Positions 10,258 through 13,684 are shown, counted from the whole stretch's first letter. The stretch is DNA of 63,487 bases, filler included, from Stramenopiles sp. TOSAG23-2 (GCA_900128395.1; 20 parts of 20 records of this genome joined end to end with filler, not necessarily neighbours in it), one strand, 5' to 3'. Notes: generated from the letters alone by a model not told the origin. Numbers and translations are program-made.

Positions 10258-12479
10258 CTTGAATATACAATTGTATATCTTTCATATTTTTCTCCGAATC
10301 TGCAATTAATTCCTCTGGATGAAATTTACTTAATTTTTTCATAATATTCACTTCAGGACGTGTAGTCAAAAAGAATCCAAGCCATTCTGGTAATTCTAAA
10401 AAATTATCACGTATACAATCTAATAAATCATTTTTACCATTATGATCACATTCATCCAATGCATCAATTAAAATGATTTGACGCTTTGATTTAAAATCAT
10501 ATGGGCGTTCTACATTAACCAATGGCTCTCTTAAAATTTTATCAAATAATGCAGTAATATTAAAATCAGTCAACATGTCACCAGTTAAATTAATTTTATT
10601 TAATTTTTTACAATATTCTGGTATTCGTTCAGCTAATTGATATGCTATCGATTTTAAAACATGTTTTGGATCACGTTTTCGACTATCATCATGTCTACAA
10701 AAATGATGTGCAATGATATTTTCATTCCTGGTATGTACTAATTTACTCATAATTCCCGTTTTTCCTACACCAGCATCAGCAGATAACACACATACGCGTG
10801 AATCCAATTTATTTTCAACCCAATGATCAAAGTCTTGAAAAGCCCATTCTCTTGTACCATTGTGAAATCGTTCAACTGCACCATTAATTTCTAAATCGAA
10901 ATTTAATGGATCCAATACAAGCTTTAAGTTTTTTAAAATATCACGCGCTGGTAATTGAGAAAAAAGTTTGCCAGTTCCATGATTCCAAAAATCAATATCA
11001 TTACGATCAAGTATAATCCATTCCTCTTTTTGACGAAAAAATTCTTGAATATCTTTTGGTGCTAACTTTAGAAATTCTTCTTTTTTTCCCCTATCTTTTG
11101 CACGAATAACTGGTTGAATGTGAATGCCTGCTTTGATTGCCCAACGGAGTTCCTCGATGCAAAACCAACGTTTAAAGTATGAATTATCATCTGGGTTATC
11201 ATTTGGTTTATCATCATTTATGCATGGTCCTGTTACAACGGCAACAAATAATTTTGCATTACAAACACCTTCTTCCATTGCAGCTAATGAAGTATCATTC
11301 ATCTTAACATCTAACCATGTAGAATAATCTTTTTCTTTGAACGATTGATATAGCGTTTCAGCTAATGTTGTAGCTTCTGCACTACGTCTTGAATGGCCAA
11401 TAAATACATCCCATGTACCAGGTTGATTACATATTAATTTTTTGGTATTTAACTTTTTAATGATTTGATATATACCTATATCCCAAAATTCTTGATCCAT
11501 TTCATCTAATACAATCCATTTCGAATTACCTAAATATTTTAAATCATCTGGTGCAGATCCTATGAAACTACCGATATTTTCTTTGTCTTCAAAACGTACA
11601 ACTGGTTGTATTATTGTTTGTGTATTTTTACTATGGCGAAGGTATTGAACACATTCAGCATTATCAAAATATGTATCTGTAATCATAGCAATAACCATTT
11701 GTTTTCCAATAATTGAGTAGTCATCTTCTTCAGCTGTTGTATATCCTTTTGCATTTAAAGAGGAACTGATACGCTTTGCAAATTCTAGTTCGTTGGAATG
11801 ATTGATACTGATATTTACAACGGATGGAACATTTACAATAATATTACTCGTAGTACCTGTTTCTCCTTTTGTTTCATCATCTTGATGATTAGTAATTGTA
11901 TTATTATTATTATTATTACTGCTGTTAATCACGTTATTGTCTCTTGATGTCTGTTTCTCCTTTTGTTTCATCATCTTGATGATTAGTAATTGTATTATTA
12001 TTATTATTATTACTGCTGTTAATCACGTTATTGTCTCTTGATGTATCTTTGTCATGGTCGTTATTTTGTAAATTGTTATTATTAGCATGCTTTTCCTCTT
12101 GCTCTTGTTGTTGTTGCTGTTGCTGTTGCTGTTGCTGTTCATCTTCTTTTTTTGTTGTTTCTTTTTTCGTTGTTTCTTTTTCCATCTTTTTTGGTATCAA
12201 TTCTAATCTGGATTCACTCCCAGCAAGTTCACGAACTGTATGTAAATGTTCTTTTCGGGGTGAAAATGGTGCATCATTATGGCTAAAATAGTACTCTATT
12301 CCTAAATTTGGAAAGTTGTTACTTTCTAATAATATTTCGTTCCTTGCATCTGCTAACGTAGAGTCTTCACATAAATCTATTGCAACAATTGCTTCATTAT
12401 TAATCACAATTGTTACTATAATAAATGTATTGTTTTCTTTCTTCTTCTTTTCTTTCTTAGATGATGCGCTGACACCCAT
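10258..12479 (-). CDS. NLR-like protein: N-terminal MG motif, small globular domain, degenerate TIR, TIR, NACHT/STAND NTPase. 3'-partial, split by a 94-bp tandem duplication
   Basis: TIR: WDVFIGHS..WLDVKM..AMEEGV..YFKRWFCIEELRWA. STAND: GTREWAF, Walker A ADAGVGKT, AHHFC, SIAYQL, Walker B IILIDALDEC, FLTTRPE. Removing one copy of 11857-11950/11951-12044 fuses ORFs 11934..12602 and 10202..11974. An alternative ATG at 12602 lies in a 123-bp duplication. Confidence 0.88.
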
Positions 12480-13684
12480 GGTATTTATTGTAATTAAATC
12501 TATTGCAACAATTGCTTCATTATTAATCACAATTGTTACTATAATAAATGTATTGTTTTCTTTCTTCTTCTTTTCTTTCTTAGATGATGCGCTGACACCC
12601 ATGGTATTTATTGTAATTAATACTTAATACACAATTATATGCAACGATAGTGTGGCACGGGTTATTGCAATTATTATATAAATAGTGTTTCGACAAAAGT
12701 ATATAAAATTACAAAATCTGTTTATTATCTAAAATCTATTAAGTTAGAGTTTTTGTACGAGTAGTTCGTATTAAAATTCCAGTAGAAATATTCAAAGATT
12801 CAACCTGCTAGTAAATTTCTCTTTTCAGATATCGTAAAACTAGAAAGCAATTACAGCACTGGAGTACGTATAATATCAACAGTATTTTAATAAGATTAAA
12901 ATATCTTGAGATGTATGATATGACAAATAGTTTTTAGACAATCCTTTTTTTAAATATATCGTTCTCGTCACTCTGTTAAACTCTTCTTTTTGATTGTGAT
13001 GTGTTTAATTTCTGTCTATATATATATAATATATAATATGTGTGTGTTGAGTTGTGGTGGTATTCACCTGTAAAAAAAGTCATTACATATCTAGATCTCG
13101 TGCGAAAATCGTTAAGTTGCCGCATCATTATATGGGAATATCATTGGATCCACATTTGGATTGTTGGTCTTGTTATTGCTGATGTGTTCGAATGGATAAA
13201 AATATTCAATACATATATACCTGCTATCCTATATACTATATACTATCAAAATTTGCCTATCAAGCTAAAATGCAAAACAGAGCAAGATATCCCACTTCCG
13301 TGTAATACCCACGCAACATTTGACATTCCCTTGACTTGTTTGATTGACAACTGCATCGTGCAACAACCACTTTCCATTATTACCAGATCTGTAAAATCTT
13401 TTGTACGGATCATACCTACGTAGTTAACCCTGATGCCTGATATTGAGGTTGGTTATATTATTCCACCTACCTCTCTGGCAGGTTATTATAAATATACTTC
13501 GTTCCACCTATACCTCTCTAGCAGGTTATTGCAATTTTATATATCCGGCAATGAATAATGCATTCCAACTACATTNNNNNNNNNNNNNNNNNNNNNNNNN
13601 NNNNNNNNNNNNNNNNNNNTTAATTAATTAANNNNNNNNNNNNNNNNNNNNNNNNNNNNNNNNNNNNNNNNNNNNATAACCACC

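Follow-up and report, generated by a model that had tools for sequence, protein, structure and literature searches.

This report concerns a minus-strand gene carried by a contig of 3.3 kb (10258-13575) in DNA recorded as Stramenopiles sp. TOSAG23-2 (GCA_900128395.1). The window, meaning the whole stretch of DNA that was analysed, is 63,487 nucleotides long, and all coordinates are counted from its first letter. The gene is read here as one intronless protist gene for a STAND/NLR-like receptor. It carries two TIR domains in tandem ahead of a NACHT NTPase, the first (TIR1) without the catalytic glutamate and the second (TIR2) with it. A frameshift in the assembled sequence is taken to be an artefact, and a mechanism is proposed in which TIR2 would cleave nicotinamide adenine dinucleotide (NAD+). 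We put the probability of this statement as a whole at roughly 0.7.

Anatomy of the gene

The predicted protein runs from a MGVSASS start through a ubiquitin-like domain, a low-complexity linker, TIR1 and TIR2 to an NPHP3_N-type NACHT, without introns. In the assembly it is spread over two overlapping open reading frames (ORFs) of the minus strand, 12602..11937 (222 residues, P0002) and 11974..10259 (572 residues, P0001), the latter running off the end of the contig. The landmarks named in the initial annotation of this DNA, which was made from the sequence alone, were all located: the N-terminus MGVSASSKKEKKKK is present, CVQYL and CIEEL lie near the places given for them in the first and second TIR-like domains, the Walker A and Walker B motifs of the NTPase (GVGKTG and ILIDALDEC) are intact, and the 94-bp duplication stands in the assembly (11857-12044, 2.0 copies, 100% identity). 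This anatomy, together with the reading of the 94-bp duplication as an artefact (see below), is very probable. The features are as follows.

12372..12620, minus strand: 123-bp tandem duplication, 2.0 copies, a perfect repeat with both copies identical
12438-12479, minus strand: myristoylation-type start MGVSASSKKEKKKK, from the translation
12189..12434, minus strand: predicted ubiquitin-like (beta-grasp) N-terminal domain, from AlphaFold2 and structure search; no Pfam match
11822..12188, minus strand: low-complexity linker (Lys/Glu/Thr, poly-Gln, poly-Asn), from the translation
11857..12044, minus strand: 94-bp tandem duplication, 2.0 copies, 100% identical, which shifts the frame
11447..11821, minus strand: TIR1, modelled as a TIR fold, no catalytic Glu; AlphaFold2 and BLASTP against TIR2; no Pfam match
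11639-11653, minus strand: CVQYL of TIR1
11642-11644, minus strand: Tyr at the place of the Glu in TIR1
11597-11611, minus strand: IQPVV of TIR1
10949..11416, minus strand: TIR2, SARM1-like and Glu-bearing; Pfam TIR_2 and structure alignment
11381-11395, minus strand: HSRRS motif of TIR2
11147-11161, minus strand: CIEEL of TIR2
11150-11152, minus strand: conserved Glu of TIR2, residue 275 of P0001
11105-11119, minus strand: IQPVI of TIR2
10358..10858, minus strand: NPHP3_N-type NACHT NTPase; Pfam NPHP3_N
10754-10771, minus strand: Walker A, GVGKTG
10448-10474, minus strand: Walker B, ILIDALDEC
10258..10357, minus strand: open frame to the contig end (...LYIQ); winged-helix and sensor parts absent from the contig

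The TIR pair

The proposal of two tandem TIR-like domains with common C-terminal motifs was borne out by BLASTP, which aligns TIR1 and TIR2 at an E-value of 3e-13 (25 of 80 positions identical) across the YF..C..L, IQPV, APxD and WIxLD..D.FW..G motifs. Pfam recognizes TIR2, residues 190-300 of P0001 matching TIR_2 with 37.7 bits against a cut-off of 28 (E 3.3e-9); on residues 40-185, which hold TIR1, there is no Pfam TIR match even at E <= 1. The domain assignments made at the outset were therefore upheld in part by profile hidden Markov models: TIR_2 (on TIR2) and NPHP3_N were found, the generic NACHT model stayed below its cut-off and TIR1 had no Pfam match.

The fold of both domains was examined in an AlphaFold2 model of the 306-residue TIR pair, built from an input alignment of 56 sequences. 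Its mean predicted local distance difference test (pLDDT) score is 90.9, mostly above 90 within TIR1, and its predicted template modelling score (pTM) is 0.69. Parts of the model were then aligned structurally with solved chains, giving the Z values quoted here. TIR2 (model residues 148-303) superposes on the SARM1 TIR domain 9mw2_A with Z 17.1 and a root-mean-square deviation (rmsd) of 2.1 A over 129 aligned residues, at 24% identity. TIR1 (model residues 13-137) superposes on SARM1 9l2d_A with Z 15.5 and an rmsd of 2.1 A over 118 residues at 14% identity, on the Cat1 TIR 9mud_A with Z 13.4 and on the SNC1 TIR 5h3c_B with Z 13.1. Whether the first domain would model as a TIR fold had been set beforehand as a test that could refute the claim, and with Z 15.5 to a SARM1 TIR it does so.

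The two domains differ in several places. Strands B and C of the TIR2 model are joined through a helix B (191-199), where TIR1 has only a 10-residue loop. The BB region of TIR1 is short and no Arg-Arg follows its strand A; its INHSNE stands opposite GHSRRS of TIR2, which corresponds in the profile alignment to SYRRNS of SARM1. C233, E236 and L237 of the aligned segment are near-invariant across the 56 sequences. E236 is the second Glu of CIEEL, and it pairs with the Tyr of CVQYL, not with the Gln. When the TIR pair was compared with solved structures by plain sequence search, only chance-level rows came up (E 0.87 and above), so that a profile search was needed for the SARM1 match. The profile of the alignment finds chains of SARM1 and of Caenorhabditis elegans TIR-1 at E 0.006-0.008, and places the TIR2 Glu on the Glu of SARM1 'HKEI', which is E642 when counted from G601P of chain 6o0v. 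In the available portion of a 2026 preprint, E642A of SARM1 serves as the inactive NADase control (10.64898/2026.09.21.753143).

On the model, both domains have the flavodoxin-like fold of TIRs, TIR1 without the catalytic Glu. From its sequence, TIR2 is probably an NAD+-cleaving effector, an NADase. That the Glu is lost specifically in TIR1 hints at its importance in TIR2. This point, the near-invariance of the Glu in the 56 aligned members and the fact that the nearest solved structures are NADase TIRs of SARM1 also tell against a view of TIR2 as a non-enzymatic adaptor that recruits other TIR proteins by homotypic contact, as in animal TLR/MyD88 signalling. Such an adaptor would find a possible partner in another TIR protein of the subfamily encoded in the window (a TIR-TPR protein, 29512-30627), and it would suit a subfamily fused to many partners, among them ARM, ANK, kinase and SAM; it is nonetheless an improbable account of TIR2.

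The duplications and the frame

The ORFs 12602..11937 and 11974..10259 are parted only by the frame shift of the 94-bp duplication. Deleting one copy in silico, as the initial annotation had envisaged, lengthens the longest frame of the contig from 588 to 757 codons and gives a single frame. Reads bear on the matter through run X1, the likely source run, in which a fraction of 0.92 of the sampled words is present. Record 6 of its read-built contigs (784 letters) places letters 1-318 on 11569-11886 and letters 507-767 on 12169-12429; between these blocks lie 188 letters, against 282 in the window, and record 6 thus holds exactly one 94-bp copy. Three near-identical relatives from other assemblies (92-97% identity to the window) read through without interruption, each with a single copy of the unit: P0223 (179 residues, 97% identity) from the N-domain through the linker into TIR1, and P0217 (352 residues) and P0003 (331 residues, 92% identity) from the linker through TIR1 into TIR2. 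With the single-copy read contig, the three relatives and the 757-codon frame in agreement, the claim that the two ORFs are one gene holds.

A further line of evidence for one gene is that two independent marine metagenomes span the TIR2-NACHT stretch. Record 24 of X4 covers 10689-11298 with 9 differences and 0 gaps, and records 17 and 18 of X3 are likewise ungapped. The 33 listed substitutions of the metagenome contigs comprise 13 synonymous and 20 non-synonymous changes, and are to be read as a mixture of variants, possibly including paralogues at the NACHT end. Stretches left uncovered in the read-contig runs (e.g. 11923-12144, masked repeats) are evidence neither way. As an observation apart, an X4 variant has an in-frame TAA insertion at 11434, in the short TIR1-TIR2 linker, which therefore tolerates a change of length.

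The 94-bp repeat is not alone. Perfect repeats of 2.0 copies occur four times, in 3 of the 20 contigs of the window, with units of 88, 94, 116 and 123 bp. The 88-bp duplication (15671-15847, in contig 13676-16992) splits an ORF with a B-box and leucine-rich repeats (LRRs) into 13685-15910 and 15684-16463; when one 88-bp copy is deleted, 744 codons become 899. We conclude that the 94-bp duplication is an assembly artefact. The opposite view, that the duplication is real, the frameshift genuine and the gene a pseudogene, can point to the presence of the duplication in the assembly as given and to a related copy, P0003/P0004, that is also broken. It would leave unexplained the single copy in the X1 read-built contig, the three relatives that read through, the breakage of an unrelated ORF on another contig by a duplication of the same kind, and the open frames with conserved motifs on both flanks; we consider it very improbable.

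Besides 18 nt of 5' leader, the 123-bp duplication takes in the ATG together with the opening 35 codons. There are accordingly two start codons, at 12600-12602 (copy 1) and 12477-12479 (copy 2), and MGVSASS... occurs twice in frame. Translation from the second ATG (12479) gives a protein collinear with the paralogues P0007, P0008 and P0010. This duplication, too, is probably an assembly artefact. As 123 bp is a whole number of codons, the protein starts with MGVSASS either way.

Two further repeats may be recorded here. The perfect 116-bp duplication of 2.0 copies lies at 51540-51773, near arrays of 147-bp and 298-bp repeats at 52590-52987 and 53091-53789. P0064, the TIR1 protein of a relative in another assembly (223 residues), contains an internal repeat of its own TIR1 sequence, which looks like the same kind of duplication artefact.

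Conservation and antiquity of the pair

When TIR1 was the query of a full phmmer scan, 265 proteins came up at E <= 1e-3, of which 39 reached E <= 1e-10 and 2 reached E <= 1e-30. Tandem-TIR proteins account for the matches that cover the whole of TIR1; the scan also reaches single TIRs of the subfamily, at about 1e-14. The full-length orthologue P0062 (2013 residues) has a ubiquitin-like head, TIR1, TIR2, NPHP3_N (482-641), a KH domain (1068-1127) and WD40 propellers (~1380-1650). Its KH domain hints at a nucleic-acid ligand or an integrated decoy. P0225 (1091 residues), whose source label is MAST-4 (marine stramenopile), is 51% identical over 91% of P0001. Past its first TIR1-TIR2-NACHT unit, P0225 has a second TIR-like stretch and a second P-loop (GIGKT); either two tandem genes were fused by the gene caller, or this is a true double unit.

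The residue at the position of the catalytic Glu, in the window and five orthologues, is as follows.

TIR1, Glu column: window Y, P0217 Y, P0225 Q, P0062 H, P0063 H, P0065 Q
TIR2, Glu column: E in the window, P0217, P0225, P0062, P0063 and P0065 (6 of 6)

A Glu-less TIR1 followed by a Glu-bearing TIR2 is thus kept in all five orthologues examined. P0217 is 92% identical to the window in TIR1 and 98% in TIR2; for P0225, P0062, P0063 and P0065 the values are 36-45% and 51-65%, and the NACHT of the two diverged orthologues that reach it is 57% identical. Some 27 of the TIR1 columns listed are invariant in all six sequences, and so many invariant columns indicate that TIR1 is kept as a folded domain.

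In a maximum-likelihood tree of 29 TIR segments, the six TIR1s form one clade (support 100/99) and the six TIR2s another (93/99), with the same inner order in both: (P0062, P0063), ((window, P0217), (P0225, P0065)). The shared topology means that the TIR domain was duplicated, and the Glu lost, before these lineages separated. Two rows of the tree, P0044_T1 and P0077_T1, were disregarded, their columns probably not being TIR in those proteins; their branches are very long because the segments were badly cut. In the tandem-TIR proteins P0066 and P0085, which are not NLR-like, the two copies of each protein pair with one another and both carry the Glu. On the sequence comparisons, TIR1 has been under selection since before the orthologues diverged, and a domain that lacks the Glu, the Arg-Arg and helix B and is conserved all the same would best be seen as a non-catalytic partner of TIR2.

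What kind of partner is a harder matter. By analogy with known pairs, TIR1 may act as a brake on TIR2, a suggestion that we hold tentatively. The other role to be weighed is that of an activating scaffold, TIR1 pre-forming an asymmetric pair so that fewer protomers are needed for activity. The tandem arrangement may itself be functional, as the Glu-bearing pairs of P0066 and P0085 suggest, TIR1 is conserved as a folded domain, and in plant tetramers only one TIR per AE dimer provides the active site, according to the part of the source at hand (PMC13732033). The same partial text has the neighbour in known assemblies inserting a BB element and so opening the active site (PMC13732033); with no helix B and a short BB region, TIR1 looks unfit as such a donor, and the scaffold role is accordingly unlikely.

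The family around these orthologues varies at the head. In the paralogues P0007, P0008, P0010 and P0226, which have the same N-domain and NACHT, the TIRs are replaced by an MLKL_N-like helical domain; the C-terminus is made up of WD40 repeats, found in P0008 and P0226. The MLKL_N matches in Pfam have E-values of 7e-5 in P0007 and 6e-9 in P0015. The NACHT of the MLKL_N-type paralogues is 78-79% identical to that of the window; the N-domain is 63-68% identical in the metagenomic loci L001-L003 and 42% in L004. Another relative, P0016, has a PH domain at its head. TIR-TIR, MLKL_N and PH thus alternate before a constant NACHT, which indicates a family that swaps its effector heads as NLR-like families do.

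The NTPase and the missing C-terminus

The NTPase had been annotated as NACHT/STAND, and Pfam places it with the NPHP3_N type: residues 373-539 of P0001 score 91.7 bits against a cut-off of 24.8 (E 7.4e-26). The generic NACHT model gives 18.2 bits, under its cut-off of 26.7. The gene is indeed cut off by the contig end, as had been noted, since the frame is open at 10258 and the full-length orthologue P0062 continues to WD40 repeats. Loose ends of read-built contigs at 10262 go on as ..GDALKEC.., like P0004 and P0007. Metagenomes were scanned with P0004 for a longer copy; all six loci found have a NACHT match, and four of them (L001-L004) also have the N-domain and are MLKL_N-type paralogues. 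The search for sensor repeats beyond the contig end therefore succeeded for the orthologue, with its WD40 repeats, and failed for this gene's own sensor. The part of the protein that is present has no LRR and the relatives carry WD40 repeats instead, so that 'NLR-like' is the right term.

NPHP3_N being the best Pfam model for the NTPase, and a KH RNA-binding domain standing between NACHT and WD40 in P0062, the protein might also be taken for a housekeeping STAND protein like animal NPHP3 or TEP1, which belong to cilium and ribonucleoprotein particles. Its close paralogues exchange the effector (TIR-TIR, MLKL_N, PH), as is typical of NLR-like families of defence and death, and there are many diverged paralogues. 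Both facts make a housekeeping role very unlikely.

The N-terminal head

No Pfam match was found anywhere in the N-terminal ORF (P0002). The first 97 residues from the second ATG are modelled by AlphaFold2 as beta-beta-alpha-beta-beta-alpha-beta with a pLDDT of 75.9. In a wide structure search nearly all of the 50 matches listed are ubiquitin-like folds, a few owing this solely to a fusion partner or to a large complex; the highest Z among those listed is 8.5, for the PI3K adaptor-binding domain 2v1y_A and for TINCR 7mrj_B, and the best Foldseek E-value is 2.2e-3. The model thus points with moderate confidence to a ubiquitin-like beta-grasp, at the level of the fold only. A protein-atlas look-up of the domain gave scores of at most 0.86, with one row for a Rad60 SUMO-like cluster that serves as a lead only. 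A word-based search with the domain gave 2 matches and missed known paralogues, and so says nothing on the domain's range.

N-myristoyltransferase acts on proteins that begin with Met-Gly and carry Ser, Thr or a small residue at position 6. A start of MG with Ser or Thr at position 6 is found in all five close family members with a complete N-terminus: MGVSAS in the window, then MGSGAS, MGGAAT, MGGGAS and MGGGAS. N-myristoylation and membrane binding are therefore inferred for the protein from its sequence.

Proposed mechanism

By analogy with the orthologues, a winged helix and a WD40 sensor would follow beyond the contig end. The sensor would bind a ligand, and the NACHT would then exchange its nucleotide and oligomerize. 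This would bring together the TIR2 domains of several protomers and form their active sites, and NAD+ would be cleaved by means of the conserved Glu, leading to depletion of NAD+ or to production of a signal. The place of action would be a membrane, to which the protein would be held by its myristoyl group and basic N-terminus. At rest, TIR1 would lie as a safety catch on an interface of TIR2, like the TIR of RRS1 on that of RPS4, in the same chain.

Several observations weigh against the reading as a whole. The relative orientation of TIR1 and TIR2 is uncertain in the model (pTM 0.69). The read-built contigs end inside the 123-bp repeat. A near-identical copy of the gene on a 36.5-kb contig of another assembly is split as P0003/P0004 within TIR2; this break is absent from P0217 and from the X3 and X4 contigs. 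The distant orthologues P0062 and P0063 lack MG at their called starts, which may be mis-called. This gene's own sensor was not found, none of the six loci from the scan of metagenomes with P0004 having a TIR match. Evidence from RNA is weak: contigs of the oligo-dT marine metatranscriptome X15 fall within the gene only on 10292-10850 (5 differences in 421 letters and 2 in 164), the TIR region is uncovered, and DNA carry-over is possible. Finally, assignment to the stramenopiles from the sequence comes down to one source label at 51% identity.

Source organism and other contents of the window

The window consists of 20 contigs, sorted by length and mostly of about 3.3 kb, which are chained by linkers of the form N44-TTAATTAATTAA-N44 (38 runs of 44 N). 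As contigs are unlinked across the linkers, gene neighbourhood outside 10258-13575 is meaningless. The G+C content of the window is about 30%. The domains encoded by ORFs of the other contigs are eukaryotic: those of an Elp3-like radical SAM protein and of a class II tRNA synthetase fused to GST, a Dzip1-like ciliary domain, CUE, ankyrin, PH and protein kinase. This eukaryotic content, and the MAST-4 label of the best long relative, agree with the protist origin first proposed. Pieces of the stretch are present in marine metagenomes from several studies, and the source is probably a MAST-like stramenopile, a marine protist.

An Rfam scan of the whole window gave 0 matches, hence no rRNA on which taxonomy could draw, and no convincing ORF was found in the part of the contig upstream of the gene (12640-13575). 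Contigs of X15 also fall in that part, on 13293-13575, where they may represent the end of a neighbouring transcript. The TIR-TPR protein of the same subfamily (29512-30627, plus strand) runs to the end of its contig, its TIR_2 match (E 2.8e-11) lying ahead of TPR repeats. Its identity to TIR2 is 31% (E 7e-23), and the Glu is preserved in FCIKEI. An ORF with a PH domain (27322-28628) was considered as a paralogue of the PH-NACHT protein P0016; the match is confined to a short PH motif (E 8e-6) and no claim is made.

Significance

A TIR NADase endangers the cell that makes it, and in plants, animals and bacteria alike it is an open question what restrains such enzymes. Here the plant-type division into a dead and a live TIR would be found within one STAND chain of a protist, conserved across diverged orthologues. 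If this is true, a unicellular eukaryote would have arrived independently at its own answer to TIR auto-toxicity, and some 300 residues offer a compact system for testing whether a dead TIR is a brake or a scaffold. The family in these uncultured marine protists would be NLR-like, with exchangeable heads (TIR-TIR, MLKL_N, PH) and a common ubiquitin-like N-domain that is putatively myristoylated. There is also a practical lesson, that perfect tandem duplications on the scale of a read length split genes in an assembly.

Among the papers listed by full-text searches, supplements aside, no description of NLR-like receptors from MAST or other stramenopiles was found, nor one of a conserved pair of dead and live TIRs in cis on a STAND NTPase. 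The order TIR-NACHT-WD40 is already known; what is new is the pairing of a dead with a live TIR in cis.

Comparison with known systems

The literature search on tandem TIRs turned up only TirE of Dictyostelium, described in the accessible part of its source as having RCC1 repeats and two diverged tandem TIRs that Pfam models miss (PMC13142454). TirE resembles the present protein as a protist protein with two tandem TIRs missed by Pfam. It differs, as described, in its RCC1 repeats and in that no NTPase is mentioned in that part of the text.

A TIR-like domain directly upstream of NPHP3-type NACHTs has been named TeTIR and occurs in TEP1, NWD and NPHP3, with the Glu in some members and without it in others, e.g. 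NPHP3, as far as the available sections of the paper go (10.64898/2026.09.21.753143). The likeness to TEP1, NWD1, NWD2 and NPHP3 lies in the NPHP3_N-type NACHT with a TIR-like domain just upstream. TeTIR, as characterized in those sections, is extended (200-350 residues), has an RWG loop and occurs once per protein; in the present protein both TIRs are compact, at about 125 and 157 residues, and they superpose on canonical TIR structures.

The order TIR, NPHP3_N/NACHT and WD40 is shared by proteins of prokaryotes and fungi, one of which, P0231 (labelled as a TIR domain-containing protein of Methanofollis formosanus), matches 68% of the query at 27% identity. These proteins carry one TIR only, without a dead partner, and neither a myristoylation-type start nor a ubiquitin-like domain. 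The MLKL_N-NACHT-WD40 paralogues (P0007, P0008, P0010, P0226 and L001-L004) have the MG start, the ubiquitin-like domain and the NACHT, and differ at the effector position, which is occupied by an MLKL_N-like helical domain and not by two TIRs.

SARM1 and C. elegans TIR-1 give the best structural match of both domains, and TIR2 shares the Glu and Arg-Arg of SARM1. SARM1 has a single TIR behind ARM and SAM and no NTPase; unlike SARM1, the TIR family described here has an additional set of C-terminal motifs, IQPV..APxD..WIxLD..FW.

The closest parallel in organization is the RRS1/RPS4 pair of plants. In TIRs of the RRS1 type, which belong to sensors, the catalytic Glu is missing and the BB loop is short, and it has been proposed that they hold the TIR of RPS4 in check, on the portion of the source that was available (PMC13732033). 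These are two NB-ARC-LRR proteins encoded by two genes, where we find one chain with a NACHT and, in the orthologues, WD40 repeats, and there is no sequence kinship beyond the TIR fold. In both systems one TIR is Glu-less with a shortened BB region and the other keeps both elements, Tyr standing in TIR1 and Glu in TIR2 of the present protein. Taken together, and still more tentatively than the brake itself, the protein may be an old NLR-like receptor of a stramenopile-like lineage, with a dead TIR as a safety catch in cis and a myristoyl-anchored ubiquitin-like head, and so a single-chain counterpart of RRS1/RPS4.

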